Made by a program: the position numbers and the translations under genes. The notes under the pieces were generated by a model. It was not told the origin of the DNA, did not search any database, and worked only from the letters and a program-made list of their open reading frames with translations. A stretch of 58,847 bases of DNA, taken from positions 1-58,847 of IMG/VR virus record IMGVR_UViG_3300044796_000233; one strand, 5' to 3'. Source of the DNA: a virus. Lineage: Duplodnaviria > Caudoviricetes. Below are positions 7,930-52,312 of the stretch, piece by piece (the first letter of the stretch is position 1; every line of letters starts with the position of its first letter).

Positions 7930-8439
7930 TTATCTCCAATACTTAAGGATGATTGTTCGGATTAGTTTTTCTTGCTTGATACGGTCGGCGACGAGGGCGG
8001 CGAAGAAGGCGGCGTCGTAGGCGGCGTCGTAGGCGTTGCAGGCGGCGGCGCTGGCGGCGAGGGCGGCGGCGTTGGCGGCGTCGTAGGCGGCGTAGGAGGC
8101 GTTGCAGGCGGCGGCGCTGGCGGCGAGGGCGGCGGCGTAGGCGGTGTCCTTATCTCCTTTTCTCGCTGCTTCAATAGCTTTCCGTGGCCTGCTATCGTTA
8201 GGATAGGCATTCTCAAATACATGTAAAACGCTCTCGGCGATGTCAGCAGCTGCTAGTACTACCTTTTCCGTTGGCATCAACCGAACCGCTACCCAAATCT
8301 TATCGGCATGCGTTATATGTTTCAATCCCATGAATTGCCGATACGTAAAGCTACGGTGACCGTAGCGCTTCAGATAATTTTCCCATCGATTGCTACAAGG
8401 CTTCAGTTTCTCAATCACATTTTTATTTATCATAGTCAC
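7930..8439 (-). CDS. Imm5-like protein with Ala-rich variable core, paralog 1 (likely start 8433)
   Basis: DKIWVAVRL...AADIAESVLHVFENAYPNDSRPRKAIEAAR + (A/Y/N/D)-rich repeat + KQEKLIRTIILKYWR. Confidence 0.8.
   Translation of the reverse strand: MTMINKNVIEKLKPCSNRWENYLKRYGHRSFTYRQFMGLKHITHADKIWVAVRLMPTEKVVLAAADIAESVLHVFENAYPNDSRPRKAIEAARKGDKDTAYAAALAASAAACNASYAAYDAANAAALAASAAACNAYDAAYDAAFFAALVADRIKQEKLIRTIILKYWR
7984..8148 (-). repeat. NNC-only GCC-based variable tract, paralog 1 (55 of 55 codons end in C)
   Basis: Reads as uninterrupted GNN triplets on the + strand. Confidence 0.95.
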
Positions 8440-8442
8440 TCC

Positions 8443-8553
8443 TTAGTTATCGATATTATGTAAGATCTCTATGAACATAGCTCTCCCATACACGGTGATA
8501 AACCACGTCTCGGTGTATTCGAATATATCGTCGTAGATTTGTTCGTCAAACAT
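8443..8553 (-). CDS. Small hypothetical protein (36 aa, MFDEQIYDDIFEY...)
   Basis: ATG overlaps the upstream stop (TAATG); ends just before the RBS of paralog 1. Confidence 0.5.
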   Translation of the reverse strand: MFDEQIYDDIFEYTETWFITVYGRAMFIEILHNIDN

Positions 8554-8753
8554 TAAGCGCACTCCTTTTCGTAAGCATCTTCAGCATCTAAAAGTCTTCG
8601 TACCTCGTACGTTAAGCAGCATTCAAGGGCAAATAAATCACCGACTAGCTCTTGGGCCTGCACATTGTCGTGATCTCTCCAAGCTTTACGTGCGCGTAGT
8701 TTTACTGAGTCGATGGCATCAAGGATATCTCTAACGTTCTGTGTGTTGTACAT
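8553..8753 (-). CDS. Hypothetical protein
   Basis: 66-aa ORF using the GGAG in the end of paralog 2 as RBS. Confidence 0.7.
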   Translation of the reverse strand: MYNTQNVRDILDAIDSVKLRARKAWRDHDNVQAQELVGDLFALECCLTYEVRRLLDAEDAYEKECA

Positions 8754-8754
8754 A

Positions 8755-9246
8755 TTATCTCCAATACTTAAGGATGATTGTTCGGATTAGTTTTTCTTGC
8801 TTTTTCCGATCGTCGGCGGCGATGGCGGCGTAGTCGGCGGCCCAGGTGGCGGCGGTGGCGCAGTCGTAGGCGGCGTTGATGGCGGCGTAGGAGGCGGCGT
8901 AGGCGGCGTAGGAGGCGTTGCAGGCGGCGGCGATGGCGGCGGCGCTGGCGGCTTTCCTATCTCCACTTCTCGCTGCTTCAATAGCTTTCCGTGGCCTGCT
9001 ATCGTTAGGATAGGCGTTTTCATAGATGTGCAAAACGCTCTCAGCGATGTCAGCAGCCGCTAACACTGCCTTTTCTTTTGGAAGTAACTGAAACGCTACC
9101 CATAATTTATCCGCATGCGTTATGTGCTTCAATCCCATGAATTGCCGATGCGAAAAACTTCGATCACCGTAGTGCTTCAGATAATTTTGCCATCGATCGT
9201 TGCACGGTTTTAGTTTCTCAATCACATTTTTATTTATCATAGTCAC
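8755..9246 (-). CDS. Imm5-like protein with Ala-rich variable core, paralog 2
   Basis: Highly similar N- and C-termini to 7930..8439 and 51752..52312. Confidence 0.8.
   Translation of the reverse strand: MTMINKNVIEKLKPCNDRWQNYLKHYGDRSFSHRQFMGLKHITHADKLWVAFQLLPKEKAVLAAADIAESVLHIYENAYPNDSRPRKAIEAARSGDRKAASAAAIAAACNASYAAYAASYAAINAAYDCATAATWAADYAAIAADDRKKQEKLIRTIILKYWR
8812..8952 (-). repeat. NNC variable tract, paralog 2 (46 of 47 codons end in C; exception TGG)
   Basis: Manual codon parse. Confidence 0.95.
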
Positions 9247-9257
9247 TCCTAGAAATA

Positions 9258-9286
9258 AGTATCCTACTTCTCGACAAAAAAGTCAA
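9258..9286 (-). promoter_or_regulatory. Sigma70-like promoter TTGACT-N17-GATACT
   Basis: Directly upstream of the paralog 2 RBS. Confidence 0.55.
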
Positions 9287-9338
9287 AAGAGTTAACTATG
9301 AGAATGTACAACAAAATTTTTCAAAAGTTAAAAAACAT

Positions 9339-11405
9339 TTACTTCAAATCTCCTAAGTTCTTTGCAATCTTAGGTATAGCCACAAGATCAACACCGGGGA
9401 TGCGGCAGGTCTGCTGCATTGCGTTTTTAAGCATAGCGGATACAAGCTCCCCCTCCTCTTCTTTACACTCCACGATAATTTCATCGTGGACGCACAACAC
9501 TATTTTGCAGTCAATACCTGCTGCCTTAGCGGTGTTTTTAAATGCAATCATAGATCTATTAAGGATAGACGCCGCTGCGGACTGGTTAACAAAATTCACC
9601 GCGAGATTAAGCACAGTCTTAGCCTGGTAAGGCATGTCCATCCAGTCAACGCCCATGTAAACCTTACCGATACGTATGCCTTCCGGAAGTCGGCGTGGGC
9701 GTCCAAAAAGGCTTACCACACGTCCTTCGGTCTTTACTTGCTTATGACACCGGGTTTGGAGATATTTGACCGATGGAAAGGTCTCGAAATACGTGTCGAG
9801 AATTTCCTGCGCTTCGTTCATAGATATTCCAAGCACAGATGCGATACGAGGCGCAGTAGCTCCGTAGGTAGCGGCTAAGGCAATAGTCTTAGATATTTGG
9901 CGTTCTTTTTTGTATTTAATACCAAAGGCGTCTGGTCTTCCTTCTTTGAGTGGTACTGCGTCAGTTTTATTAAATACTTCCATTCCGATGACGGAATAGA
10001 AGTCCTCTCCATTCTTAAAACAGTTAAGCAACCGTTCGTCTCCTGACAAAGAAGCAAAGATTCTGGGTTCAATTTGCTCAAAATCTGCTCCGACAAAGAC
10101 TTTTCCAGGTCGACTAACGATGCACGACTTGATCCTCTTGTCATCTCTTGGCAAGTTCGTAAAATTTGGATCACGGCTACTGTACCTTCCACTGGTAGTT
10201 CCATGTTGAAGGAAGCTCGGTCGAATAACTCCATATTGTAATGACTCCTCTATGCCCTCTACGTAGGTGCTTAAAAGCTTGGTTAGTTTCTTGTACTGTA
10301 GCAGCTTCTGAACCCATTTGTACTTAGCTGCTACTTTCTTGAGCGCCTCTTCATCCACACTGATGTAGTTCCAGTATTCGCGAACCTTACGACCGCCAAC
10401 CACCTGCCCGGTGTACTGCTTCATCGTATGGATAAAGTTTCTCTTTGCTACGTCGGTGTAGATTTTACCAATTTGAAGGCTGTCTGCCCATTCTTTCCCG
10501 CCGTCAGTGAGACGGTAAAAGACCTCACCGAGTTGATCGTAGAGTAGCCACGCTAGTTGCGGTCCAGATCCTATATTGAAAGTAGTCTTGGCTGTATCAC
10601 CAGGGTACTTGTCCTTGATCTTATCTGCGATGTCTTTGTGGATGTCGGTGTATAGAGTAGCGATGTCTACCTCTAAGGTTTTTTTAAGTTTCCCGAGCGT
10701 TTCTACGTCGACCTTTAAACCCTCGGTGTTGAGGTCGTAAGTAGGACCGCGCAATAACGGCATGCTTTCCTCTTCGTAGAAGAACTTATCCAACCCTTCG
10801 TCCATGAGTTCTGGAAGCATTTCCCAGAACAAATTAAATGTTAGAATCGCGTCCTTGGCGCCGTACTTTGCGATAAGCTCGCTATCGGCTTTATAGAGTT
10901 CGTAGTTACCTTTTGTTACGCTTCCCCCATTTCGCTCGATCGACGACACCATTTCTTCTTTTTCCACAAGCGCTTGTTCACCGTAGAATTTGGCGCCCAG
11001 GGACTTCAGTCCTACATGTCTGTTTTCGTCAAGTAGGTGAGCCAAGATCATGGTGTCGGTGTGCACCGACGGCATCAGATCGACACCGTAGTTCACGTGG
11101 ACCTTGTCGCAGTCAAACGTAGCGTTGTGCATCAATAAGGGCTTATTGATCAAAGCTTTCATGACATCCGGTGCTGAAGAGTTGGTCTCAAGCACCGTCA
11201 TCGCCTGCTTTTCTCTGTCCCACTCCCTGGTGACTACATAGTAGGCGATATCCGATTCAGCGCACAGAGAGTACCCAATTATCTGGGATCTCTTCGCAAG
11301 GCCGTCCGTCTCGCAGTCAAAGCTGCAGTACGTCTTATCTTGTAGATAGCTTAGTAACTGTTGCACTTCTTTGTTCGTTCGTAGAATCCGCAATTCCTGG
11401 CTCAT
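9339..11405 (-). CDS. polA: Family A DNA polymerase with 3'-5' exonuclease
   Basis: ExoI DCETDG, ExoII HNATFD, ExoIII YGAKDA; TTSGRYSS, motif A DFEQIEPR, motif B RQISKTIALAATYG, motif C VHDE. Confidence 0.95.
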   Translation of the reverse strand: MSQELRILRTNKEVQQLLSYLQDKTYCSFDCETDGLAKRSQIIGYSLCAESDIAYYVVTREWDREKQAMTVLETNSSAPDVMKALINKPLLMHNATFDCDKVHVNYGVDLMPSVHTDTMILAHLLDENRHVGLKSLGAKFYGEQALVEKEEMVSSIERNGGSVTKGNYELYKADSELIAKYGAKDAILTFNLFWEMLPELMDEGLDKFFYEEESMPLLRGPTYDLNTEGLKVDVETLGKLKKTLEVDIATLYTDIHKDIADKIKDKYPGDTAKTTFNIGSGPQLAWLLYDQLGEVFYRLTDGGKEWADSLQIGKIYTDVAKRNFIHTMKQYTGQVVGGRKVREYWNYISVDEEALKKVAAKYKWVQKLLQYKKLTKLLSTYVEGIEESLQYGVIRPSFLQHGTTSGRYSSRDPNFTNLPRDDKRIKSCIVSRPGKVFVGADFEQIEPRIFASLSGDERLLNCFKNGEDFYSVIGMEVFNKTDAVPLKEGRPDAFGIKYKKERQISKTIALAATYGATAPRIASVLGISMNEAQEILDTYFETFPSVKYLQTRCHKQVKTEGRVVSLFGRPRRLPEGIRIGKVYMGVDWMDMPYQAKTVLNLAVNFVNQSAAASILNRSMIAFKNTAKAAGIDCKIVLCVHDEIIVECKEEEGELVSAMLKNAMQQTCRIPGVDLVAIPKIAKNLGDLK

Positions 11406-13221
11406 TGGTACTCCCGTTAAATGAAATCTTGGTGTAGGTTACTTGGTCTTTTTTCCGGTCTCGTCCGCGTAGCTTCCTTGCCACGTCGTCCCAGAACCTA
11501 AATGCCTCTTCCTCGTCGGTAGACATCTCTCTTAAAAGCTCTGCTTCGGAGTCAAAGTACATGTAATAAGGTACGTCTTCTTGTATGACGTCCTTACCTC
11601 GCTTTTTGTGACGTATCTTACAGAACTTGTAAGCCATCACCGTGGGGCAGCCGGGGTTGTGGTAACAGAGCTTTACAGGCTGCCACAGCGTGATTAAGAA
11701 GTCACAGTAGGATTCAAAAAATACGGTACCGTAGGCGGCATCCTTATTTAGCTCCAGATCTCCAATGCCTGCTTTTTCTCGGGGGGCCTGGGACTGCATG
11801 ATCAAAAGTGTGTTGGTGCGGATCGCAAATGCCTTCATGGCGTGGCATATGTCCATCAGCGCCTGATTCTCACCGTCCTTGCCTGATTTGCTAAGTGCGC
11901 CGATGTGGTCGATTACGACTACTCCTACTTTTTTCTTAGTTCGCATCTGGAACTGCACCAGGTATTCTTCAATGTCTGAGAGAGATAGTCTTCTGTACGA
12001 CCCATCCGGTGCGTAGTTACTCATGACATGCACTTTTTTATGTAGATGCTCGTCACCACGGCACATGTTTGCCCACCGCTCTGCTATCTCTGCGGCTGGT
12101 TGCTCTAGTGGTACGAAGAAATGTACGTAATTAGGATTATTTTGAACGATCCACTTGAACATGTTTAATGCTACGGTGGTCTTTCCCACGCCGGACCCAG
12201 CTACTAGTCCTATTACCTGTCCCAGGCGATAGCCGTATTCAGTGTTGTCCACCGATGGGTGGCATGGGATTCGGGTGCCTTTCATAGAATCACCGGCTTT
12301 CAAAATAATGTTGTCGACGCTGTCAGAAAGTTCTTCAAAAACCGAGGTCTCCTGATATTCAGGAATTTTATTAATGATGTCTTGTGCGTAGGCTTCACGG
12401 TGCTTAGGTGCTCGGGACAAGGCCTTGGGGCAGTTGGCTAGGATCGATAGTGCCTCTTCCTTAGAGAATCCGAAGGACCATAAAAGGTGCCCTAGCCTAA
12501 AATCTGATCTGCTACGATCGTCCGTGTTCCCTTGCCAAATTTCTCTTACTTCTTTACTTTCATTTAACAGTTTCTTAAACTTTCCTGACATCTTATAGTT
12601 AATCGCTATGACGTCAGATATCTCGTTATGGGTGTTATCCCAATGAGACTTGCAGTAGATTTCATCCTCCATACTGAGTTGCGGAAGAACTTGGTCCATC
12701 TGCTCAGAAGTGTATGTGTCTTCACCGGTGTAAATCTCTTCGCACGGCACCATGCGCTCCCAGGATTTCGTGTTTAGCGTGCCAGGAAGCCTCATAAGCT
12801 GACAAAGCTTACCTACTGCTAGGTCGGTATTGAGACACCGGGCTAGTCGCCTCTGGAGGCGAATGTAGGCCTTATCTGAAAGATCAGTGATTCGCCAGTA
12901 GGCGTGAACACCCCCGCCGCTATCAACTATCTTGGTGGGGCATAGAGGAAATTCACAGAGCCTATCTAAGAAAGCCTCTTTGGACGCGTAGACCTTTTCC
13001 TTTAGGTCCATGTCGACGAAAACGCACTCAAAAACGTTTATGTCTGTTCCCTGGACGCTACCGCCAGCGTAGTGACTCGGATAATTAGGAAAATAGTAAC
13101 AATTAAAACCACTCTCGTTATGTTTTTTAATTTCCTCCCACGTCAATTCGCCTTCGATGGTAGGAGGAGTTCCCGGTTTTTCCTCTCGAAGCCAGTCTGG
13201 ACTTATTAATCTAACCAGCAT
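11335..13221 (-). CDS. Primase-helicase: RepB-like AEP primase fused to an SF4 (DnaB-like) helicase
   Basis: FVDMD, SGGGVHAYW and MRLPG primase motifs; Walker A AGSGVGKT, VVIDH, MQSQ. Confidence 0.88.
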   Translation of the reverse strand: MLVRLISPDWLREEKPGTPPTIEGELTWEEIKKHNESGFNCYYFPNYPSHYAGGSVQGTDINVFECVFVDMDLKEKVYASKEAFLDRLCEFPLCPTKIVDSGGGVHAYWRITDLSDKAYIRLQRRLARCLNTDLAVGKLCQLMRLPGTLNTKSWERMVPCEEIYTGEDTYTSEQMDQVLPQLSMEDEIYCKSHWDNTHNEISDVIAINYKMSGKFKKLLNESKEVREIWQGNTDDRSRSDFRLGHLLWSFGFSKEEALSILANCPKALSRAPKHREAYAQDIINKIPEYQETSVFEELSDSVDNIILKAGDSMKGTRIPCHPSVDNTEYGYRLGQVIGLVAGSGVGKTTVALNMFKWIVQNNPNYVHFFVPLEQPAAEIAERWANMCRGDEHLHKKVHVMSNYAPDGSYRRLSLSDIEEYLVQFQMRTKKKVGVVVIDHIGALSKSGKDGENQALMDICHAMKAFAIRTNTLLIMQSQAPREKAGIGDLELNKDAAYGTVFFESYCDFLITLWQPVKLCYHNPGCPTVMAYKFCKIRHKKRGKDVIQEDVPYYMYFDSEAELLREMSTDEEEAFRFWDDVARKLRGRDRKKDQVTYTKISFNGSTNEPGIADSTNEQRSATVTKLSTR

Positions 13222-13486
13222 CGAATAGACTCCAGTGTTTTAGGTCCTTGTGCAGCACTACGTAGGTTCTAGTTTCGTAGAATATTTTATTATGCCTGTT
13301 GATTAAGTGTGCCCTGACCTTGGTGTGTGTGGTGAATTTGAGAGAATATAAAACATGTAGTGCTATGTCGTCCGTACAGTCATGCACCCACACTTCTCCG
13401 TAGTTAAACATAGTCACTCCTAATATAATTGAGCAGGATCGGATTTGATACCGACAAACGTGATCTTTTCTTGCCTTATTACTCAC
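13211..13486 (-). CDS. Hypothetical protein
   Basis: 91-aa ORF overlapping the primase start. Confidence 0.5.
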   Translation of the reverse strand: MSNKARKDHVCRYQIRSCSIILGVTMFNYGEVWVHDCTDDIALHVLYSLKFTTHTKVRAHLINRHNKIFYETRTYVVLHKDLKHWSLFDAG

Positions 13487-13636
13487 TGCCCGGGCTTTGT
13501 GACGGGGTTAATGTGTCCTTTAGAATTGCCACATCGCCTGCTCAAAACTTTTTATAAATGGGCCGGTAACCCGTTCCGTTCGTTTAACCCCCGGCTGGAT
13601 AGGGGCACCCATGGTATCTACAAGTGGGGATAGTAC

Positions 13637-14113
13637 TTATCCAGTCTTACGGTTGTTCAAACGCGCAGCAAGCTCTGCTTGACGAGCGCTAGACACCGCG
13701 GCGCCGGACGGGGCAGCCTTAGCGCGGGCCGTAGTCGCCGGGGGGGCTTCAACAACGTCCTCTTCCTGGCCGGCAAGTGCAGCTTCGATATCCGCATCGT
13801 CTGCAACGTAGCTGGTGTCTACTTCGAAGTCGAAAAGCTTAGTAGGATTACCTTGCTTAGACGGCTTAGAAGCGCTGTAGGTGATACGAACAAGCTGGCC
13901 CGGAGTCTTGGTGTCGGCCCAGTCCGAAAGCACTTTGGACGGGACGACGGCCTTAAGACCTTCCTGAGTCTTAAAGATAAGCTTAGTCGTAGGACCATAC
14001 TTACCGTTGAACGGGAAGCTGCCCAGATAAACACCGGTGAGGGAGTCACCGATGTTGGTGAACTTAAAGAACTCGCCGCTCATTTCGTTGTCTTTTTCAA
14101 ATGCCATTTTCAT
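13637..14113 (-). CDS. Putative single-stranded DNA-binding protein
   Basis: FFKFTNIGDSLTGVYLG...VRITY OB-like fold with acidic/Ala-rich tail; replication module. Confidence 0.65.
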   Translation of the reverse strand: MKMAFEKDNEMSGEFFKFTNIGDSLTGVYLGSFPFNGKYGPTTKLIFKTQEGLKAVVPSKVLSDWADTKTPGQLVRITYSASKPSKQGNPTKLFDFEVDTSYVADDADIEAALAGQEEDVVEAPPATTARAKAAPSGAAVSSARQAELAARLNNRKTG

Positions 14114-14143
14114 TTCCTTTGCTAGTTGTTGAACTGATTTGTC

Positions 14144-14401
14144 TCACTTGACAAGTTTCAGTTTTCGGGATTTTTTACGTCCCAAACTTTCAAAATCTTT
14201 ACATGCTTCGCAGTAAGCACTATCCACTAAGCATGTCTGATACTCGCCTTCGTAGCAAGCTAAATGATAGCCGCAGAGCCTCCACGGTGGATCTTTTCTT
14301 TTCGGAGCGTTTGCTACAATCACTATCCACAGCACGCAGCACGACGAGAGTAAGGACACAAAAATTAAGCTGCTATATAGCGCGTGCTCGGTGTAGTTCA
14401 T
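14144..14401 (-). CDS. Hypothetical membrane protein with Cys cluster
   Basis: N-terminal hydrophobic helix, CxxH/CxxC. Confidence 0.55.
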   Translation of the reverse strand: MNYTEHALYSSLIFVSLLSSCCVLWIVIVANAPKRKDPPWRLCGYHLACYEGEYQTCLVDSAYCEACKDFESLGRKKSRKLKLVK

Positions 14402-14625
14402 ACTTGCCTCACGATTTTACGAGGAAAAGGCATGATGCCTTCTCTCCAGTAGCAGAACACATATTCGTCGTTTTTGATGTACTTCCAGCGTTCGTCTTCC
14501 GTAACATGCTTCGGCACATAACGAGTCTCGATTGGACGAACAAATGTTCCGGCTGAAACAGTTTTTTTATCGTATCCTTCATTGTACGAGTATTCTTCTG
14601 TCAGAGCATAGTCCGGTGTCTTCAC
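14398..14625 (-). CDS. Hypothetical protein
   Basis: 75-aa coupled ORF. Confidence 0.65.
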   Translation of the reverse strand: MKTPDYALTEEYSYNEGYDKKTVSAGTFVRPIETRYVPKHVTEDERWKYIKNDEYVFCYWREGIMPFPRKIVRQV

Positions 14626-26379: not shown

Positions 26380-26700
26380 TATTACAGTACTGTAACTAGT
26401 AGTTGTTTCAGAAGTCAAGAGCTATTAGTAACTAGTATTCTAGAATACTGTAACTAGTAACGCTTACCAAAAACCAGTAAACAACCAATCGCATACGGCT
26501 AAATCAATTTACGAGATGCCGAAGGCATCGAAGTAGAATTGATCGGGTTGTTAAGGGCGGAGCCCTTAAATTCCCCATAAACGCTAACGCCCCCAGTAAC
26601 AGATACTAGGTTATTGAAATTACTTGTCAAGTAAAATCGTATAAACACTAAAAATAATTATATTGCGCCCAAAGCCCCGGTGTAGTACTGTTTAATCATG
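26380..26700. promoter_or_regulatory. Divergent control region / candidate replication origin
   Basis: Strand switch; palindromes 26382-26395 and 26434-26449; GTAACTAGTA x3; hairpins 26503-26543 and 26545-26575; promoters on both strands. Confidence 0.55.
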
Positions 26701-27312
26701 AACGGATACAAACAACATTTTTTAGGAGATAATATGCAGTACGTTAAGCTCACCGTAGTAGCCTTGGTTCTTTGTTATCTAGCAGCTGGTTGTGCTAAAA
26801 AGCAGACCACACCCACGGTGTCAGCACCGTGTACTGTGGTTGCCATCACCAACGGCGTTGAAATTGATTGTCCCGGTAGCGCTTCCCAGTACGTTTATAA
26901 CGGAACTCCCGGTGTAGATGGCGCTACTGGCGCTACTGGCGCTACTGGCGCTACTGGCGCTACTGGCGCTACTGGCGCTACTGGCGCTACTGGCGCTACT
27001 GGTCCGCAAGGTGCGCCAGGTTCTGATGCAGAGACGTGCCATATCACCGAGATTTATGGTGGCGTTAACCTTACCTGCGGTACAACATCAGTGATTATTG
27101 CTTCGTTGTCGGTAGTGCAACTATGCCTTGGTACACCGGCTTACCCTAGTGTTTTCGTTGAGGATGCTATTTGTATCAGTAATAGCCTGTTCGCGGTGTA
27201 TTCTACTAACGGAGGTTTCTTGACTTATATTCCACCAGGAGCGTATAGTAGTGAAGGAGTAGGTAGCCGGTGTGATTTCACGGTACTGCCTAACTGTCAG
27301 ATTCAGAACTGA
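26698..27312 (+). CDS. Collagen-like lipoprotein (likely start 26734)
   Basis: AGGAG RBS before MQYVK; lipobox LAAG-C; (GAT)9 collagen run; Cys-rich C-domain. Confidence 0.8.
26920..27000 (+). repeat. Perfect 9-bp tandem repeat (GGCGCTACT)9
   Basis: Encodes Gly-Ala-Thr x9. Confidence 0.95.
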
Positions 27313-44038: not shown

Positions 44039-44054
44039 CTCTATAAGTGTGGTT
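44039..44054 (-). promoter_or_regulatory. Putative late-promoter motif AACCACACTTATAGAG
   Basis: Immediately before the GAGG RBS of 44030. Confidence 0.6.
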
Positions 44055-44479: not shown

Positions 44480-47400
44480 AGTTGAAGGACAGGTTGGTTA
44501 GGTCCATGAACTCACCGGAGGCACCGGTGACGACTTCTTGGATTAGTAGCGACATAGAATCGCATTTCTGAATCGTAAGGAATTGCCGGAACTGGAACGG
44601 GGTCTGGACGAATGTGAAAGGATTATGCGCGGTGTAGGTCTCGATGAAGTTCACCGCGGTGGAGATCTGCACACCGTGAGACCCGTTAACGGTACCGTCA
44701 CCGACGACTAGGAGATGCCGAAGCCGTTCGAACCCTTGTATGCCGGCGATAGCAAGCCAGCTAGTCTTCACCGTCAAGGCGAACGGTGTGGCGTTGTCGA
44801 GATACGTAGAAGAATTTTCTTGGTAGATAGCGCCATCAGTTCGGACATAGACGTAGGCACCATTCCAGTTGTCGGAGGAGTAACCCAGGTGGTTGGTGAA
44901 TACGGACCACTTGTTGAACATGTAGTCGTAGTGGAGGGATACACCGGAGGCGCAGAGGAACCGTACCTGTGTGGTGTTGGGGATGATCTTAGAATCTTGG
45001 ATCGGGGTCGTGCTGTAGGTTTCCACAGCGGCACCGTTAAAGACTTGGTCCGAGTAGTGAGGGTTGAGACCGCGATCGAGTAGGAATATGCCCTTTGTCG
45101 TCTGATAGATGATACCAGCCGGTACCAGGGTTAGGCTTCCTAGTACGGCCAGGCCTGATCCACTAGGGATGGTCTGCGGTTGTGTGAGAGTGGAATTGTT
45201 GCCGGTATCGTTAGCGCCGTCGCCTGCGAACCACAAGATTCCTTGGTCCTTGAAGACGATCATCTTGTCGTCCATGGCTTTAAGTCCAACGGTGTTTCCT
45301 TGTGTTGGTTGAATTTGAGTTATGTTAAAGTTAGCCGGTGATAAACCGTACCCCGGTGCGAACTGTTTGCTGTACCAGAGCGTGTTGGGTGCTTCAGCGT
45401 CGACACACCAGAGGCGATTGAAGCGAGGCTCTAACACCAGGGATGGGGGTGGCGTTGAGTTTTCCGATACACCACCGTTGGTGTAGAGTGGTGGAGCGTT
45501 GCGGAGCTGGGAATCGGTGGTGTTATCGATGAAGACTTGAGAGAAAACCGTGTTGGAGAAATTTCCGACTCCGCTATTGATCTGAAAGAATTCCGTACCG
45601 CTAGCGATAGTGCGGTACAGCTGGATTGTTACACCTGTCTTACCGGTTAGAAAAGGGTCAGTAACGGTGATGGAAACCTCTGAGTTGGCAGAGGCGACGG
45701 TGATGGAAACTTCTTGGGACGGAGCGGACTGGTGTAGGTTACCGTTAGCGTCTAACCATTGATACACCGCCACGTACGCGTAGGTACCTGCAGGAATCAC
45801 GCCGCCCATCGGGGTGCTTTGGGCGATCTTGTAGATTTCGGGGTACAGGTGATATCCCCACTCAGCACAGGTCTGCCCGTCGTACGCCGACAACAATGCC
45901 CCGTTAAGGATGTTCAACTCACCGGCCTGCGTGTTCTTGTACGTGCGTAGAGTGTTGAATCCAAAACTAAATGCAACCGATCCGTAGGAACTAACTGTGT
46001 TTTGTGTGAATGTAGAGTTGTTAGTGAAGGTTACCGAGGATGCGAATTGTTTTGTAGCGCAAAAAACGTAGTTTCCTGAACTAACAGTAGCCACATGCGG
46101 CGTGAACCAAGTAGTTATAGCAAGCGCTAAGCCACTAGCAAAGCGACCGGCAACGCAAGCATTAGCCGTGTCAATAATAAAATACGTAGGTTGTACGTTT
46201 GGGACGGTTGTGGAACTCACCGAGGAGTCGTACGTGGGTCCGTTGTAGTAGGCTATAAAATAATAGGCACCGTTGAATGAGAAGACACGTGACATAACTC
46301 CCACACCGAGGAGGTATAGTGCGATCCCTGTTATGCCCCCACTGATCGTGGGAATCGCGGTGTGGATAGAATTTATGCTATTACCGTTCGTGTCCTGTGT
46401 AACGACGGTGTAGAACACCGACTGGGTCGTGCTGTTAGTGGATTGCGCTACGATGTTCAGTATCGCGTTTTGTCCTTCGCTTGTGATGATCGTACTTGTC
46501 AGAATAGGAGTTAGATTTGAATCGTACACCTCGTAGTAGATGGAGTGCGTTGTGGAGATAGTGTCAGCATAGTAGACCCATATGTTACCGTTCGTGGGAT
46601 CCACGATATTGGCGACAGGGTTAGTCACCGTAGAGGACGTAGATAGGCTGATTGCGGCACTGTTTATGGTTGCCCCGGTGTCGTCTAGTGTTCTGGTCGT
46701 TACTGTGTCAGGGGAACTAAAAACATGGGACGTAAGCACGCAGCCGGTTGAGGTGGCAGACACATCGAATGACGGGTGGGACGGTAGTGAAGGTAAGTTT
46801 GCGTTGGGTTGAACAATAACCTGTGTGCCGATAGTCGCAGTAGTGCCGGATATGGTCACCACTTTCATGGCGATAGCGCTAGCTGTTCCGCCGTTTTGAG
46901 CTAGGTAAAATATACCGGCTTTTGTTGGACTTAAATTAATTACTCTGGGCGCGCTTGTGTCGGTGGTGCCGTTACCGCCATACGGTGCGACGAGAGTGTT
47001 GGGAAGAATCTCTACACCGGAGACGTTATCAACTATGGTGGTGTACACCGCTGGTGAGACGCCCGTAGCCCTAGCGTCCTCGTAAACATAGACGGTGTAG
47101 TTACCAACTACAGCACAGTCGGCGGCACCGGATACTGAGGTCTGGTAGAATATGCCTTTCTCGCTAAAGTCTATTGACGTGTAGTTTCCTTGTTTCTCCC
47201 ACGCTGGGAGAGATGGGCTGTAGGAATAGAACTGGCCTGAATCTTGACACGTAAGCTCGGTGCCGTAGGTGTCGATCATGCGCGGGGCGACGAGATTACC
47301 ACCGCCGGCAATAGCGCTTGTCAGGGCCGTGTAGCCATTCCTTTTCTGGATGTTGTCGATCTTGGTGTAGACGCCGTCTTGTACGAGGAGGAATTCACCG

Positions 47401-47507
47401 GGGACGACCTTTTTAGAGTCAGTCTTGGTGTTGATGCCGCCGCTGAAGTCAACTGGAAAGATTTGATCCTGAAGCGGCATTAGAACACCCACAGGGACAC
47501 AGTGCAC
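44427..47507 (-). CDS. Tail nozzle / DNA stabilisation protein (P22 gp10/T7 gp12-like; likely start 47480)
   Basis: FSGGINT...KRNG N-terminus, beta-propeller-like body, NRLW...LWYS. Confidence 0.75.
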   Translation of the reverse strand: MHCVPVGVLMPLQDQIFPVDFSGGINTKTDSKKVVPGEFLLVQDGVYTKIDNIQKRNGYTALTSAIAGGGNLVAPRMIDTYGTELTCQDSGQFYSYSPSLPAWEKQGNYTSIDFSEKGIFYQTSVSGAADCAVVGNYTVYVYEDARATGVSPAVYTTIVDNVSGVEILPNTLVAPYGGNGTTDTSAPRVINLSPTKAGIFYLAQNGGTASAIAMKVVTISGTTATIGTQVIVQPNANLPSLPSHPSFDVSATSTGCVLTSHVFSSPDTVTTRTLDDTGATINSAAISLSTSSTVTNPVANIVDPTNGNIWVYYADTISTTHSIYYEVYDSNLTPILTSTIITSEGQNAILNIVAQSTNSTTQSVFYTVVTQDTNGNSINSIHTAIPTISGGITGIALYLLGVGVMSRVFSFNGAYYFIAYYNGPTYDSSVSSTTVPNVQPTYFIIDTANACVAGRFASGLALAITTWFTPHVATVSSGNYVFCATKQFASSVTFTNNSTFTQNTVSSYGSVAFSFGFNTLRTYKNTQAGELNILNGALLSAYDGQTCAEWGYHLYPEIYKIAQSTPMGGVIPAGTYAYVAVYQWLDANGNLHQSAPSQEVSITVASANSEVSITVTDPFLTGKTGVTIQLYRTIASGTEFFQINSGVGNFSNTVFSQVFIDNTTDSQLRNAPPLYTNGGVSENSTPPPSLVLEPRFNRLWCVDAEAPNTLWYSKQFAPGYGLSPANFNITQIQPTQGNTVGLKAMDDKMIVFKDQGILWFAGDGANDTGNNSTLTQPQTIPSGSGLAVLGSLTLVPAGIIYQTTKGIFLLDRGLNPHYSDQVFNGAAVETYSTTPIQDSKIIPNTTQVRFLCASGVSLHYDYMFNKWSVFTNHLGYSSDNWNGAYVYVRTDGAIYQENSSTYLDNATPFALTVKTSWLAIAGIQGFERLRHLLVVGDGTVNGSHGVQISTAVNFIETYTAHNPFTFVQTPFQFRQFLTIQKCDSMSLLIQEVVTGASGEFMDLTNLSFNCGIKKGLHKVRSAVSVG

Positions 47508-47770
47508 GGTGTCGTCGCGTAGAGAGTTAATGTTTTCGTGTTAAAAGGCTTGGAGCGGGAGATGGTTACAGGGTTAGTGTCTAGGTCAATAATGATCCAA
47601 CCCTGCTGCAGCCGCCCCAACCCGGTGTTAATCACTGTCTCAGCTGACCCAGCTAGCTGCACGTTAAATATAAAATTCCCCTGCACGGGTGGGAGGGCTA
47701 GCACAGGGTTCAGCTGCGAGGACCACATGGTCTGCATCTGGGTTAGTGGTAGCTGTAGTGGGAGGCTCAT
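47480..47770 (-). CDS. Small tail-associated protein
   Basis: INTGLGRLQQGWIII pattern; structural operon. Confidence 0.65.
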   Translation of the reverse strand: MSLPLQLPLTQMQTMWSSQLNPVLALPPVQGNFIFNVQLAGSAETVINTGLGRLQQGWIIIDLDTNPVTISRSKPFNTKTLTLYATTPCTVSLWVF

Positions 47771-47799
47771 TTGACTTTATTCTCTACGTCTGTTATTCT
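47771..47799 (+). promoter_or_regulatory. Sigma70-like promoter TTGACT-N17-TATTCT, antisense to the structural operon
   Basis: TG extension; ATG 6 nt downstream at 47806. Confidence 0.55.
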
Positions 47800-49042
47800 G
47801 GTTGTATGAAAATCTAACCCTGGTGAAAGTAATCCCGCTGCTAAACTTACTTTTGAGCAGGTACAAGAAATAAGACGCCGCTACGCCGAAGAAGACATAT
47901 CGCAGCATAAGCTGGGAGCACAGTACGGTGTGAGCCAACGAATGGTATCCCTTATAGTAAGAGGAGAGAAATGGCGGCATAAGGACAAATCCTCCCTTGC
48001 CGATACCGGAGAAGGGTGACATGGATCCATTATTGCCGAATGGATTAACATCCACGATCGTTTGTGGCATACCTGCATCTCTGTTCATTGCTGATTCTTC
48101 GATGCGTTGTTTGAGAAACAGGAGTTCCTGAGTGATGACACTGGTGTCGGACTCTTCTTTATCCAACGCGTATTTTGCGGCTCTGCAAATAACATATTGC
48201 AACCAACCGCTGATGCCTGTCGTAGTCGTGTCTGTGTCGGCTAACAGTTCTTTTAATCTTGGAATGTACCACAGCCGAATCGGTTGGTTCGCTGACGGAG
48301 TTGGGATAAATTGAATGTTGTTCCCAAGAAGGCGGTACTCTAGATTAAATACACCGTAGATTGTGGAGGCGCTGTTGGGGTACAGGTAGCGGTTACGATC
48401 AGCAAAATTAAACTGCCTTACCGTCACAAAAGCCTGGTTAGCGGTATTGAGTCCTAGATCCACACCGATTAGCTTATAGAAGGGTGGTGCTACAAAAGTT
48501 CCCTGCCCCGTGATGCCATTGGTATAAGTCTGCACACCGTCTGGCAGTGGGTACAGGAACGTACTGCCGTTGGTGAGGAACTGTACAGGGATTGGCGCTA
48601 CATATTGATCTTCGTACAACGTTATGAGCATATCATACAGCTCAAACATGGCGTTGTTTATGAAATAATTCCATTCCGGTGTAGTCACAAACAAGCTATT
48701 AAGACGATCTGCACGCTGCTGGGCACGCGTTCTGAGCTCACCGAGGGATAGCTCCCCGGTCATGGTCGGAACGACGCTCTGAGAGGCTGTAAATGCGCTA
48801 GAACCGGATCCGTTAACGGCTTGGACTTGGTACCAGTAAGCGGTACCTGAGGTCACCGTGGTGTCAACGTAACTCGACGCAAGCGGGGATCCAGACAGCG
48901 TGGTGATCGTGGTGAAAGTAACGTTATCGAGTGACCGCTGTAGGACATAAGACGTTGCACCGGATGTCTGGTCCCACTGACTAAGGACCTGTCCATTTGC
49001 CTGAGTGACGTAAAAGTTGCTTGGAGTGCTAGGGGCTGCCAT
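47777..49042 (-). CDS. Head-tail adaptor with N-terminal FN3 domain and atypical ~70-aa C-terminal extension
   Basis: APSTPSNF...YWYQVQAVN FN3; LGELRTRAQQRAD...YFINNAMFELYD adaptor pattern. Confidence 0.75.
   Translation of the reverse strand: MAAPSTPSNFYVTQANGQVLSQWDQTSGATSYVLQRSLDNVTFTTITTLSGSPLASSYVDTTVTSGTAYWYQVQAVNGSGSSAFTASQSVVPTMTGELSLGELRTRAQQRADRLNSLFVTTPEWNYFINNAMFELYDMLITLYEDQYVAPIPVQFLTNGSTFLYPLPDGVQTYTNGITGQGTFVAPPFYKLIGVDLGLNTANQAFVTVRQFNFADRNRYLYPNSASTIYGVFNLEYRLLGNNIQFIPTPSANQPIRLWYIPRLKELLADTDTTTTGISGWLQYVICRAAKYALDKEESDTSVITQELLFLKQRIEESAMNRDAGMPQTIVDVNPFGNNGSMSPFSGIGKGGFVLMPPFLSSYYKGYHSLAHTVLCSQLMLRYVFFGVAASYFLYLLKSKFSSGITFTRVRFSYNQNNRRRE
47806..48019 (+). pseudogene. HNH-endonuclease-type C-terminal HTH domain gene, frameshifted by one extra A after the ATG
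   Basis: Frame 47810-48019 reads KSNPGESNPAAKLTFEQVQEIRRRYAEEDISQHKLGAQYGVSQRMVSLIVRGEKWRH. Confidence 0.7.
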
Positions 49043-49056
49043 CTAATCCCTTCTGA

Positions 49057-49127
49057 CCCGGCAGGATCGACTGTTTGAACCTTCCTGCCGGGCGCTTGTG
49101 GTCACGCTGTGAAACCCCGTAGGGGTT
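49057..49127 (-). terminator. Two hairpins after the 49126 gene (AACCCC-TAC-GGGGTT; CCCGGCAGGA/TCCTGCCGGG)
   Basis: Inverted repeats 49113-49127 and 49057-49092; weak U-tract. Confidence 0.45.
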
Positions 49128-49785
49128 ATGAAGAGGAGCCGACTGGAACGGAGCTGTCGTTCAGATAGAACGTGAGTCCGAGCACGGAGCCGTCCGTAGG
49201 GGCAGTAACAGATCCGCCAGAGTAGCAGGTCATGATGATCTGCTTACCGGCGGTTTGTGGGTTCGTCGAGTTAGAGAGGTTAGAGTCACCAACGACTTCG
49301 ATGTGGTCGATGCCTGATCCACCGGAGTGGAGGGCCTGCACGGTGCCGCCACCAGCGACAGAGGTAGCAGCAGCGATAAACGCTACACCGACGGCGGGGG
49401 TGATGTTGGCAGACAAGCCTGCCGTCTGCCACTGCGCAGCGGTAGTCGATCCCAGGGACGTGATTACGTACGGGACGTGGGCAGTCATGCCTGACGAGAT
49501 GTTGGAGCCGCTCAGCGCCGACACCTGACCGGAGAACCCGCCGAGGTAGGCATTGAAGTTATCCGTGAGAGTAACTACAATGTAACCGGAAGCCGGGTTA
49601 GGGTTCCCGGTAGCCGGTGTCGCTGACGTGTGCATGTACACGCTCTTGACGTAGGCGCCTTTTAGGCTACGGATGCCGAGTCCGTTACCATTCGCGCTGT
49701 CGACGACAAAGTTGCAGTCGATAAGCGTCGGTTTGACGTGGGGGATGTAGATTGATTTGCCGTTAGGGTAGTTGCGATTAGCCAT
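49126..49785 (-). CDS. Putative capsid decoration / minor structural protein
   Basis: Start MANRNY with GAGG RBS; Ser/Thr/Gly-rich beta protein. Confidence 0.65.
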   Translation of the reverse strand: MANRNYPNGKSIYIPHVKPTLIDCNFVVDSANGNGLGIRSLKGAYVKSVYMHTSATPATGNPNPASGYIVVTLTDNFNAYLGGFSGQVSALSGSNISSGMTAHVPYVITSLGSTTAAQWQTAGLSANITPAVGVAFIAAATSVAGGGTVQALHSGGSGIDHIEVVGDSNLSNSTNPQTAGKQIIMTCYSGGSVTAPTDGSVLGLTFYLNDSSVPVGSSS

Positions 49786-49888
49786 GTTATCCTCGGTTTG
49801 CCTAGTATGAGTACCGGATATACCAGTACTTCTCACCGTGGCGGCCTAGGCACCGACACAGGCGGGGCTCCGAGGATATCCCGAGGCT

Positions 49889-49903
49889 CCTACTAGTGTG
49901 GTT
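49889..49903 (-). promoter_or_regulatory. Putative late-promoter motif AACCACACTAGTAGG
   Basis: Restarts structural genes after the accessory island. Confidence 0.6.
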
Positions 49904-49969
49904 TCCTTAACTATGGCTAACTTTATTCAAGGATAATCCCGGTGCCGTCCTTAGCACCGGGGCGTCTAA

Positions 49970-50173
49970 CTATCTGTGTTCTTGGGGTAAAGTCGGCTTC
50001 CTTATGACTACACCGCGGGCTTGACGGTACAGTTCTAGGTTGAATATCTCGTGCCAAGGTCGAACACCGTTCGGTAGTAAATATATTTTTGCTCCAGGAC
50101 TTTCTTTTTCTATGCACTGGCATATTTTAGCCAGGTCGCTGTCTTTTGTTGTTCGTTCTATAAAAATATTCAC
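49970..50173 (-). CDS. Hypothetical protein
   Basis: 67-aa ORF with AGGAG RBS. Confidence 0.55.
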   Translation of the reverse strand: MNIFIERTTKDSDLAKICQCIEKESPGAKIYLLPNGVRPWHEIFNLELYRQARGVVIRKPTLPQEHR

Positions 50174-50175
50174 CG

Positions 50176-50742
50176 TTATTCTCCTTTCGAGAATTTCTCC
50201 ACTAAAGCAGCGATCTCAAGCGCTGTCAAGTTTGCAGGTACCGGGATGTTGATGGGCTTGTCGCCGAGGAGGACGGTCAGGACGATACGTGCGCCGGAAG
50301 TCTGCCATGGACGTGGAGATCGGGCTGCTCGTACCTCAGGGGCGGCCTTAGGGGGCGTAGGCTGCGGCAGCGTTCCAAAGTTGGTTCGGGGACGGAAGCC
50401 CTTTAGCTCGTCTTTGACCTCACCGAGGGCAGCGGCTCCGAGGGACTGTAGCTTGATGCGGATGTCTTTTAAGGCTCGTATGCGTCCCTTATGGTCCTTA
50501 TCGATCTTTCCTACACCGAGATCGGCGAGCAGCTTAAGAACACTGATTATTTTATCGTCACTGTGGTCAAACCCTTGTGCCTTCATGTTACGGGACACTG
50601 ACACCACGGTGAGGTCTTTGCGGGCACGGTGGCGGCTCGCGCACAGTAGTGCGAAGTCTTTGAAGACTGGGTTCTTTTGGACTTCTTGGCTGAGGGCGGT
50701 GACGAGGTCTTTGGTAGTCATACTGTTACTCCTGTTTCTCAC
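50176..50742 (-). CDS. Hypothetical protein, possibly DNA-binding (likely start 50721)
   Basis: AGGAG RBS, upstream TTGACT-N17-TATACC promoter; basic. Confidence 0.7.
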   Translation of the reverse strand: MRNRSNSMTTKDLVTALSQEVQKNPVFKDFALLCASRHRARKDLTVVSVSRNMKAQGFDHSDDKIISVLKLLADLGVGKIDKDHKGRIRALKDIRIKLQSLGAAALGEVKDELKGFRPRTNFGTLPQPTPPKAAPEVRAARSPRPWQTSGARIVLTVLLGDKPINIPVPANLTALEIAALVEKFSKGE

Positions 50743-50863
50743 CGGGTTATTCCGGCTGATGCAGGGTATATTTCAAGTACGATACCAAGTCAATGCTTAT
50801 TCGTTACAGCTTATATTTGAGCTGTGTCTTTTTTGACGTCAAAGAGCTAAGCAGGTGTAAAGC

Positions 50864-51445
50864 CTACCTAGTATCACATCCTACGACGACTAGATCGTGG
50901 TCTAAATCAGGCGCGCAGTATACACGTACGGGACCGAAGGAGCAGTGGACATTGGGTGCTGACTTTACTTCCTTCCAATCTTTTGGGCTTACGAATGCGT
51001 AGGTGGGGATAACACCGGTGTCGTTAACAAACTCCTGACACTCTTTAGCAATCCGCTCTTGTACTGTTGTCTCTTCCATCACCTCCATTGCGGCGGGGCT
51101 TGTTATTCCGGCGGGTCTATAATCAACCCCGGTGCCGAATACCATTGCTTCCAGCATCGCTTTTTCGGCTTTTCTCACCGCGTTCTCAGTTAACGCAATA
51201 AATTCCTGCTGTTTATCCGGAGTAAGTGAAGGTGTATCCTTCCAGAAGCGACCTTTGCAGTTCTGAAAAATGTAGTCGTACTGACTAGTAGCTTCCTCTA
51301 GTTTTAGACTATGTTCACCGGTGCTCTTGTTCCAGTGCTCCGTTACAAGCACGGTCTCCTCCCCCTTCTTAACGTCGCACTGGGTGCAGTATTCGAAACG
51401 GTTAGTGATGCCTTCGTATAGTTTCCAAGTGTGGTTGCAGGTCAT
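50864..51445 (-). CDS. Hypothetical protein
   Basis: CNHTW...YCTQC N-terminal zinc motif. Confidence 0.7.
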   Translation of the reverse strand: MTCNHTWKLYEGITNRFEYCTQCDVKKGEETVLVTEHWNKSTGEHSLKLEEATSQYDYIFQNCKGRFWKDTPSLTPDKQQEFIALTENAVRKAEKAMLEAMVFGTGVDYRPAGITSPAAMEVMEETTVQERIAKECQEFVNDTGVIPTYAFVSPKDWKEVKSAPNVHCSFGPVRVYCAPDLDHDLVVVGCDTR

Positions 51446-51750
51446 AGATTCTCCTCGATCCAGTCGGCGATTTGTGAAAATGATTTAGGTTCTATTTGTG
51501 CGGAAAAACTACCGTCGTTCATAATAACTAATTTATCTTGAGTTGATTGGTCCAAAAAGGAATATTCAACAAAGTCAGATAACCCCTCTAATCTTGGTTG
51601 TGCTATGCCTATTTCGCATGCGACACCGAGGCAACAATAGGCGAAGCCGTCCTTGTCCTCTGTCATTAGCGTTAACCTCCCTTGGCGGTATTTTCCGCTG
51701 CGTAGTGCTTCGATCCATTGTTTTTTTACACCGAGGTTGAGTTTGTTCAT
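51442..51750 (-). CDS. Hypothetical phage protein
   Basis: WIEALRSGKYRQG...CCLGVAC...ND...SFSQIADWIE pattern. Confidence 0.75.
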   Translation of the reverse strand: MNKLNLGVKKQWIEALRSGKYRQGRLTLMTEDKDGFAYCCLGVACEIGIAQPRLEGLSDFVEYSFLDQSTQDKLVIMNDGSFSAQIEPKSFSQIADWIEENL

Positions 51751-51751
51751 A

Positions 51752-52312
51752 TTATCTCCAGTACTTAAGGATGATTGTTCGGATTAGTTTTTCTTGCTTG
51801 TTACGGTCGGCGACGGCGTTGGCGGCGCGGGCGGCGCGGGCGGCGTTGGCGGCGTAGGCGGCGGCGGCGGCGTGGGCGGCGTTGGTGGCGGCGCGGGCGG
51901 TGCCGTAGGTGGCGGCGTAGGCGTAGGCGGCGTAGGCGGCGGCGTAGGCGGCGGCGTAGGCGGCGGCGTCGGCGGCGTCGGCGGCGTCGGCGGCGTCGGC
52001 GGCGTAGCGGGCCTCGTAGGCGGCGTCCTTATCTCCACTTCTCGCTGCTTCAATAGCTTTACGTGGTCTGTCATCGTTAGGATTGGCGTTCTCGTAGATG
52101 TGTAAAACGCTTTCAGCAATGTCAGCAGCTGCTAGCACTACTTTTTCTTTTTGCATCAGCCGAAACGCTACCCATAACTTATCGTCATGCGTAATGTGTT
52201 TCAATCCCATGAATTGCCGATGCGTAAAGCTACGATCCCCGTAGTGCTTCAGGTAATTTTCCCATCTATCGTTACAAGGACTTAATGCGATGATTGTGTG
52301 CTTGTTAAGCAT
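51752..52312 (-). CDS. Imm5-like protein with Ala-rich variable core, paralog 3
   Basis: Same N/C-termini as 7930 and 8755 genes; GAGGAG RBS before MLNKH. Confidence 0.8.
   Translation of the reverse strand: MLNKHTIIALSPCNDRWENYLKHYGDRSFTHRQFMGLKHITHDDKLWVAFRLMQKEKVVLAAADIAESVLHIYENANPNDDRPRKAIEAARSGDKDAAYEARYAADAADAADAADAAAYAAAYAAAYAAYAYAATYGTARAATNAAHAAAAAYAANAARAARAANAVADRNKQEKLIRTIILKYWR
51806..52027 (-). repeat. NNC variable tract, paralog 3 (73 of 74 codons end in C; exception GAG)
   Basis: Manual codon parse. Confidence 0.95.

Follow-up and report, generated by a model that had tools for sequence, protein, structure and literature searches.

How does a phage gene come to vary widely at the first two positions of its codons while the third position stays frozen? 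The question is raised by three paralogous Imm5_like genes in IMG/VR virus record IMGVR_UViG_3300044796_000233 (Duplodnaviria; Caudoviricetes), a complete record of 58,847 bp (CheckV completeness, 100%) that was analyzed over its whole length and is referred to below as the window. All three genes, g1 (7930-8439), g2 (8755-9246), and g3 (51752-52312), lie on the minus strand, and alignments showed that their products (163 to 186 amino acids) follow a common plan, namely, a conserved N-terminal domain (N-domain) of ~95 amino acids, an alanine-rich core, and a conserved C-terminal helix. A preliminary description of the sequence had likened the cores to the variable regions of a diversity-generating retroelement (DGR) and had named slippage or gene conversion as a second candidate. 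As set out below, the cores are in-frame repeat arrays, and we favor, with a probability of roughly 0.7, the view that they are homogenized by slippage and gene conversion while variable residues on a helix face are kept by selection. The features on which the argument rests are as follows.

7930..8439, minus strand: g1, an Imm5_like phage gene; open reading frame (ORF) of 169 amino acids from a GTG at 8439.
7984..8148, minus strand: g1 array, codons 98-152; 55 codons, of which 55 end in C and 30 are GCC; 11 codon types.
7928..7977, minus strand: g1 3' element; 50 constant nucleotides (nt) made up of the last 15 codons, the stop codon, and 2 nt beyond.
8755..9246, minus strand: g2, an Imm5_like phage gene; ORF of 163 amino acids.
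8812..8952, minus strand: g2 array, codons 99-145; 47 codons, of which 46 are NNC and one is TGG; 26 are GCC.
8753..8802, minus strand: g2 3' element; 50 nt, running at its end into the ribosome-binding site and start of the small ORF that follows (8553-8753).
51752..52312, minus strand: g3, an Imm5_like phage gene; ORF of 186 amino acids.
51806..52027, minus strand: g3 array, codons 96-169; 74 codons, of which 73 are NNC and one is GAG; 45 are GCC.
51750..51799, minus strand: g3 3' element; 50 nt, running at its end into the start region of the ORF that follows (51442-51750).

Every count in the preliminary description was reproduced. The arrays comprise 55, 47, and 74 codons; 174 of these 176 codons end in C, with TGG in g2 and GAG in g3 as the exceptions; 17 codon types occur, 15 of them NNC, with CCC missing; and Ala is encoded by GCC in 101 of 101 cases, such that GCC accounts for 57% of array codons. 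Not one synonymous difference is found within the 176 codons, and ~8 codon types are private to one array by our own count from the codon lists. The first 95 codons of the same three genes present a different picture, with Ala encoded by GCT (11), GCG (8), GCA (7), and GCC (5) and third positions occupied by T (83), A (78), G (74), and C (50). The contrast drawn earlier between frozen third positions and varied first and second positions is therefore a real one, as is the placement of cores of variable length and sequence between conserved flanks: the 50-nt 3' element differs at 0/50 positions between g1 and g2 and at 1/50 between g1 and g3 (pairwise differences, 0, 1, and 1). Within the arrays, GCC and TAC are overrepresented relative to the product of the marginal frequencies at positions 1 and 2, an excess that does not separate selection from descent. 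When we simulated point mutation of (GCC)176 to 75 non-Ala codons, the mean was 127 NNC codons (maximum, 150 to 151) and 0/2000 runs gave at least 174; 0/2000 again reached 174 when only the observed residues were allowed. The neutral decay of a GCC tract by point mutation, which the preliminary description had raised as a way in which the pattern might come about, thus did not reproduce 174/176.

Runs of the same base at period 3 that exceed 15 codons are confined, in the whole window, to the three arrays (55, 36, and 69 codons). Apart from a 10-codon piece and a 15-codon C run inside the arrays themselves, the other such runs span 10 to 14 codons, the longest outside the arrays being 14 codons. 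One 14-codon run, with G at each third base, lies near the end of the record (58350-58393), together with a 25-nt stretch that matches the g3 array at 88%; this is probably no more than GC-rich coding sequence. The arrays are also crossed by long ORFs in alternative frames (7962-8222, 8787-9023, and 51784-52119 in another frame of the minus strand; 7972-8226, 8797-9063, and 51794-52105 on the plus strand), because the NCN, CNN, and antisense GNN frames of an NNC periodicity hold no stop codons. These Pro/Thr-rich and Gly/Val-rich ORFs (78 to 111 amino acids) were considered as genes and rejected; they end outside any conserved frame and probably are not genes.

The internal structure of the arrays is that of repeats. 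Tandem Repeats Finder returned periods of 9, 12, 21, and 66 nt in g1, where tandem repeats are nested in frame and the 66-nt unit is present in 2.5 copies with 90% matches; periods of 9, 12, 21, and 33 nt in g2; and periods of 6, 9, 18, 27, and 51 nt in g3. All of these periods (6 to 66 nt) are divisible by 3. The g3 array contains four GAC-GCC-GCC units and three GCC-GCC-GCC-TAC units. An exact internal duplicate of 13 codons in g1 was matched in 0/500 codon shuffles, and g1 and g2 have in common an identical 11-codon run (encoding AAACNASYAAY) that includes five non-Ala codons and was matched in 2/500 codon shuffles. Furthermore, the g3 array is predicted to be strongly prone to hairpin formation on its GGC-rich strand, with a fold of -83.5 kcal/mol (z = -3.59 versus 200 shuffles). 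Both the nested periods and the hairpin potential of g3 are consistent with slippage. The DNA on either side of the arrays is nearly the same in the three paralogues, at 49 to 50 of 50 nt on the 3' side and 28 to 30 of the last 31 nt on the 5' side (90 to 100% identity), whereas whole N-domains are 80 to 85% identical, differ at 24 to 29 of 93 third positions (26 to 31%), and have a four-fold-site divergence (K4) of 0.17 to 0.30. This disparity fits arrays that are younger than the genes in which they lie.

The same features recur across a large gene family, of which 1863 proteins scored E <= 0.001 among 8000 scored candidates. The relatives are built on the same plan of three parts, and their cores vary widely in length; they are mostly phage-borne and often occur in several copies per genome. 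DNA for relatives (referred to by L numbers) came from viral contigs (the best 80 of 297 confirmed, from 424 pattern matches), metagenome contigs (the best 80 of 381 confirmed, from 599 pattern matches), and one contig of a metagenome-assembled genome (MAG); their proteins are at best 51 to 68% identical to those of the window, and no near-identical sister phage is among them. Matched-strand ORFs of more than 80 amino acids with the motif P-x-D-x-R-P-[RK] gave a set of 167 genes, including the window's three, and removal of duplicate array sequences left 107 arrays of at least 30 codons.

In these 107 arrays, the commonest codon for each amino acid had a median share of 0.92, compared with 0.61 in the N-domains of the same genes, and a share of at least 0.9 was found in 56/107 arrays versus 0/107 N-domains. 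Codon homogeneity is thus family-wide, and the homologues do not show ordinary GCN variation. A single third base makes up at least 0.9 of the array in 48/107. Arrays locked on GCT (T at third positions; GCT, TAT, and GAT) number 50, with a median flank GC content of 0.38, and those locked on GCC (C at third positions) number 19, with a median flank GC content of 0.50; none of the 107 was locked on GCA or GCG at >=0.8. The locked base therefore tracks genome composition, AT-rich phages having T and phages of higher GC content having C. The idea that queuosine-modified tRNAs and their NAC codons (Tyr, Asp, Asn, and His) shape the arrays was set aside, since the T-locked and NGG-type arrays of relatives argue against a general role.

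Many relatives carry plain 12-nt minisatellites with only one or two variable nucleotides per unit. L080 is built of ~24 units of GCC GCC NGG G[C/A]A, in which the third-position A of GCA/GAA is invariant throughout while two other positions vary; the unit is GCC GCC [A/T]GG GNC in L064, GCT GCT GCT NNG in L058, and GCT GCG NGG G[A/C]T in both L042 and L046. The synonymous base is set by place in the unit: Ala is GCC at positions 1 and 2 and GCA at position 4 of the L080 unit, and GCT is followed by GCG in L042 and L046. Arg in the regular arrays is always AGG (11/11 and 12/12), one step from TGG and GGG. Such position-specific codons are what unit copying with few selected variable sites would produce. 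That Tyr/Asp/Asn arrays are pyrimidine locked and Trp/Arg/Gly/Glu arrays carry codons ending in G is consistent with an inherited third base and change at positions 1 and 2.

Two relatives deserve mention in their own right. In a jumbo phage (L002; an IMG/VR record of 335,169 bp that has terminal repeats), five Imm5-like paralogues stand in tandem, with near-identical flanks, T-locked arrays that are all different, and a longer and different C-terminal domain. A Chitinophagales MAG contig (L083), the only match in 185,579 species genomes, has an N-domain that is 66% identical and a GCC-locked array (26/28 Ala); it may represent a prophage or a clue to the host.

Comparison of close strains showed how the arrays change. 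We took 16 independent gene pairs with N-domain DNA at least 90% identical, each gene being used once and having an array of at least 25 codons and at least 80 codons ahead of the end of the P-x-D-x-R-P-[RK] motif; a substitution was counted only if both adjacent codons were aligned identically. In 6/16 pairs the arrays were identical, some of them across different samples. The other 10 pairs held 152 gap codons, compared with 37 well-flanked substitutions, which fell at codon positions 1, 2, and 3 in the ratio 19/13/5; the corresponding figures for the N-domains were 23/21/39 (Fisher p = 4e-4). One 5-codon unit was the sole difference between L096 and L099, one 16-codon insertion or deletion (indel) was the sole difference between L112 and L113, and L111 and L117 differed by 27 gap codons and three first-position changes. 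Indels of whole codon blocks are thus the chief mode of array change between close strains. Because units differ only at positions 1 and 2, some of the apparent substitutions at those positions may in fact be replacements of one unit by another.

At the protein level, an AlphaFold2 model made with a 20-sequence alignment was all-helical, with 11 helices and no sheet (mean predicted local distance difference test score [pLDDT], 74; predicted template modeling score, 0.70); the pLDDT was 79 to 95 in the N-domain and 88 to 91 in the last helix. The proposal that the non-Ala residues line one face of a helix held for g1 and g2, in which they recur every 3.6 to 3.7 residues (0/1000 shuffles each); it was not supported for g3, in which the periodicity peak lay at 3.1 to 3.4 and the helical band was not significant (117/1000 shuffles). 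Two of the three arrays therefore have their variable residues on a single helix face.

These observations bear directly on the DGR interpretation, according to which the arrays are rewritten by adenine mutagenesis from an AAC-containing template, by a DGR that resides either in the phage itself or, working in trans, in the host or a further element. PMC7826257 describes how a DGR replaces a variable region with a copy of a near-identical template that is changed only at template adenines, and it places AAC codons at the mutable sites of templates. NNC-only variation upstream of a constant 3' element is what such a process would leave, NNC codons cannot become stops, and the residues found are those that NNC codons can encode. 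However, as the preliminary description had itself remarked, the genome offers neither a reverse transcriptase (RT) nor an AAC-rich template: a search of the complete 58,847-bp record for RVT_1 gave 0 matches (a control search was positive in 3/14 known genomes), the best match of any array in the whole window outside the three arrays was 17 nt, and the window holds no run of three or more AAC or GTT codons. No RT scored above the cut-off in five other family-bearing phage records with locked arrays, the single weak match being of 12.4 bits; three of these five records are >=99% complete, including that of the 335-kb phage and its five T-locked paralogues. A single template could not serve arrays of 55, 47, and 74 codons, and a GCC share of 57%, the indels that separate close strains, and an A that is constant at the third position over ~24 units of L080 are equally out of keeping with adenine mutagenesis from a template. 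Changes in length, the internal 13-codon duplication of g1, and blocks with non-Ala codons held in common, such as the 11-codon run of g1 and g2 with its five non-Ala codons, make the arrays a misfit to a DGR, and the modeled protein is all helix. Contradicted on most of its defining features, the DGR reading is rejected, and we give it next to no weight. It was the second candidate of the preliminary description, slippage or gene conversion, that the repeat structure, the close-strain indels, and the family-wide homogeneity came to favor.

In the mechanism that we propose, the gene product would be a phage accessory protein of the Imm5_like family, small and composed of helices throughout, and the array would be an in-frame mini- or microsatellite of 3- to 4-codon Ala-Ala-X(-Ala) units. 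These units would be repeatedly copied and deleted by replication slippage and unequal recombination, and the array with its immediate flanks would probably also be swapped between paralogues by gene conversion. The codons of an array would then be recent descendants of a few founder codons and would carry the third base of those founders (C in the window, derived from GCC). A new residue would arise by a change at position 1 or 2 of an existing codon and would then be copied in turn. Diversity would persist only at the X positions, which in g1 and g2 occupy one helix face, and the likely cause of its persistence is that a binding surface is under selection. The parts of this account that we infer are slippage as the physical process at work in the window phage, gene conversion between its paralogues, selection at X sites, and a binding function.

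A number of results weigh against this account in its simplest form. Simulations of slippage in blocks of 1 to 8 codons with uniform point mutation, no stop codons, no Pro, and bounded length and Ala content did not readily yield a locked third base and a diverse set of residues together. Under neutral slippage and mutation at equilibrium, the two coincided in 0/223 samples, since high slippage gave the lock but ~3 residue types and low slippage gave 10 to 13 types but lost the lock. Starting from the real arrays and running over the paralogue divergence (0.10 to 0.15 proposals per site) gave both in 0/200 runs per setting. Enforcing at least 10 residue types gave the lock in 0/192 samples, and enforcing at least 9 types from the real start gave it in 0 to 3 of 150 runs per setting (5/900 over six settings). 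When the acceptance of synonymous changes was lowered by as much as 100-fold, both appeared in no more than 8/120 samples per setting (21/1440 over twelve settings), a small gain, given that third-position changes with an effect on the residue still went through. With diversity enforced or synonymous changes damped, about 2% of runs or samples showed both properties. Further points on the same side are that the longest codon run that g3 has in common with g1 or g2 is 5 codons, no better than in shuffles, so that there is no visible trace of g3 having exchanged an entire array with either by conversion; that the array was predicted as long helices at low confidence (pLDDT, 37 to 67); and that the copy-number differences among near-identical strains come from homologues, the window phage's own population being known from contigs alone.

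Given the shortfall in the simulations, slippage and gene conversion account for the arrays only if these arose far more recently than the N-domains or if extra selection acts on them. The near-identical flanks support the former, being what would be expected after a recent transfer of the array region from one paralogue to another by conversion or recombination. At an exposure of ~1%, few point changes are expected, and the ~8 private codon types together with TGG and GAG would need only ~10 changes; by our own estimate, the probability of no synonymous change among ~10 is ~0.03, which is not extreme. The extra selection could take the form of selection for residue change at X sites coupled with avoidance of residues encoded by NNR codons (K, E, Q, M, and W). 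The pattern of the arrays is striking yet mechanistically ordinary.

Three other explanations were weighed against slippage and gene conversion. The purity of third positions might instead be kept by second-order selection (on mutability, as in contingency loci) or by an undescribed mutation or conversion process that spares position 3. This would explain why the lock appeared together with 9 to 11 residue types per array in only about 2% of simulations with enforced diversity or damped synonymous change, why the N-domains differ at 26 to 31% of third positions while the 176 array codons show 0 synonymous differences, why close-pair array substitutions number 32 at positions 1 and 2 versus 5 at position 3, and why the lock recurs in 48/107 arrays. 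However, the position 1 and 2 substitutions can be unit replacements, the arrays may just be younger than the N-domains (flanks 90 to 100% identical), the ~0.03 chance of no synonymous change among ~10 point changes is again not extreme, and the ten neighboring ORFs scanned against Pfam include no candidate enzyme; we therefore regard it as unlikely, although it is the strongest of the rivals. Translational selection, in which a single best codon per amino acid would meet the demand on tRNA supply of a stretch that is 57% Ala and the lock would be codon optimization, draws on the fact that GCC, TAC, GAC, and AAC are each the codon most used for their residue across the 43 ORFs of the window that reach 150 amino acids, and on the tracking of genome GC by the locked base. 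Yet the N-domains of the same genes lack this bias, GCC being the rarest Ala codon there (5/31), and since the Ala codon is set by its place in the unit in L080, L042, and L046 and Arg is always AGG, codon preference cannot explain the patterns. This makes codon optimization improbable.

There is also the possibility that the arrays are assembly artefacts, that is, low-complexity sequence collapsed or joined chimerically from the short reads of a metagenome. One DNA run (X1) is known as Logan contigs only, and these contigs end within the arrays; in one of them the g1 array boundary is fused to the g2 array, separated from it by 23 letters of other sequence (8143-8890; depth, 8.2), and another leaves out 70 nt inside the g2 array (8855-8926; depth, 10.9). 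Two odd joints and this one skip were seen in all; the joint and the skip just described may be array variants, relatives in the same sample, or graph artefacts, and the X1 depth in array bins is inflated by unrelated GGC-rich contigs. Against an artefactual origin, the reading frame of each gene stays open across its array and on into the conserved C-terminal helix, X1 contig pieces span 7948-8060 and 8773-8932 with 0 differences, the same architecture is found in at least 1863 proteins and 107 distinct arrays from many samples, and identical arrays were recovered from different samples (L009/L010, L011/L012, and L030/L031). An assembly artefact is thus highly improbable.

What the proteins do can be approached through their family and their surroundings. 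The g1 product, for which the ATG at 8433 is the position aligned to the family start, matched the Pfam family Imm5_like (PF21805) with 27.7 bits (E, 2.8e-06; cut-off, 25) and phrog_38757 with an E value of 1.1e-13. The g3 product matched PF21805 with 26.0 bits (cut-off, 25) and matched phrog_38757, phrog_21347, and phrog_18326; all three PHROGs are of unknown function. The g2 product, at 23.2 bits, fell under the cut-off of 25, yet its N-domain DNA is 85% identical to that of g1. The PF21805 profile match spans the end of the N-domain and the array. The g2 gene lies directly downstream of a family-A DNA polymerase gene (9339-11405), and a Pfam scan of ten neighboring ORFs found that DNA polymerase, a weak GNAT match, a GIY-YIG endonuclease, and seven ORFs without a match; no toxin domain was found among the ten. 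A blastn search of 7700-9400 against a phage GenBank collection gave no match, and PADLOC assigned 0 families to the three proteins.

Several other features of the window were recorded. The ORF at 53268-54101 (minus strand), ~1 kb from g3, is a homing-endonuclease-like gene with GIY-YIG, NUMOD1, and I-TevI DNA-binding matches, of which the first, at 22.6 bits, is exactly at its cut-off and the other two are under theirs. Within the ORF at 26698-27312 (plus strand), a perfect 9-nt repeat (26919-27002; 9.3 copies, 100% identity) encodes nine collagen-like Gly-Ala-Thr triplets in a 204-amino-acid protein with a hydrophobic, Cys-containing N terminus; it is a second in-frame, fully homogeneous repeat of the same phage. 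A perfect tandem duplication with a 69-nt unit (2.1 copies, 100% identity) lies at 2892-3035.

A search of the PDB for similar folds returned 29 matches, all with E > 3, so no solved structure was found to be alike, and no longer, fused form of the N-domain was found at E <= 0.001 among 129 candidates, which is weak evidence. In the Atlas, the protein falls among viral Imm5_like clusters and, by structure, beside a bacterial "putative immunity protein" cluster (TM, 0.79). Zhang et al. 2012 (PMC3482391) place Imm5 among the immunity proteins of DYW-deaminase and CdiA-CT toxins and give it as mostly helical, with the table entry "Mostly alpha; R, D." Because of this kinship with Imm5, the Tyr/Asp/Asn-rich variable face, and the multiple paralogues, a putative role for the proteins would be binding to a host or competitor protein, in immunity, as an anti-toxin, or in anti-defense. 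A literature search returned no paper naming PF21805 or Imm5-like, nothing linking Imm5 to phage alanine-rich arrays (among the papers listed, Zhang et al. 2012 alone was relevant), and nothing combining synonymous sites, tandem repeats, concerted evolution, bacteriophage, and alanine; the gene family is catalogued but unstudied.

Taken together, these results indicate that a DGR-like NNC signature can arise without any RT, with concerted evolution of an in-frame repeat freezing the synonymous sites so that only selected first and second positions vary. In screens for new diversifiers, repeat structure, length variation, and family-wide codon homogeneity should therefore be checked first. The fast-changing Tyr/Asp/Asn helical face suggests a binding protein engaged in an arms race, whether as an immunity, anti-toxin, or anti-defense factor. 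The failure of the neutral and simple-selection simulations leaves room for a more far-reaching and rather doubtful idea, in which phage Imm5-like proteins would constitute a very large RT-free natural system for evolving binding surfaces. A codon-phased minisatellite would write a scaffold of alanine helix, and its synonymous purity would itself be maintained, either by second-order selection for slippage competence or by conversion that spares the third position. If this were true, one face could change its residues and its helix length at a much higher rate than other parts of the gene change.

The arrays and their proteins can be compared with several known systems. In their profile match, mostly helical fold, and Atlas placement, the proteins resemble Imm5 and Imm5_like (PF14423 and PF21805), but here they are phage-borne, stand alone, and are encoded in a replication or early region, with no toxin gene among the scanned neighbors and no PADLOC match. 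The likeness to DGR variable regions of the Bordetella phage BPP-1 Mtd type is superficial: the arrays too have stop-free NNC-type codons, variation at positions 1 and 2, a constant 3' flank, and a likely ligand-binding surface; they differ in having no RT and no template region, in varying in length, in their indel-type differences, and in the blocks common to arrays. The Mtd target has a C-type-lectin fold, whereas the target here would be helical. In TAL-effector-type repeats and other repeat proteins under concerted evolution, recombination among units keeps the DNA near identical, synonymous sites included, while one or two specificity positions vary. The arrays work in a similar way, as L080, L064, and L058 illustrate, but the units here are of 9 to 12 nt (3 to 4 codons) rather than ~100 nt, the window arrays are irregular, and there is no homology to TAL effectors. 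The in-frame simple-sequence contingency loci of bacteria and phages are likewise length-unstable repeats that alter a surface protein without a dedicated enzyme and differ between strains by whole units. Because all periods in the window arrays are multiples of 3, they show no on/off phase switch of the kind seen at contingency loci, and since variable residues are carried within the repeat as well, sequence and length both vary.

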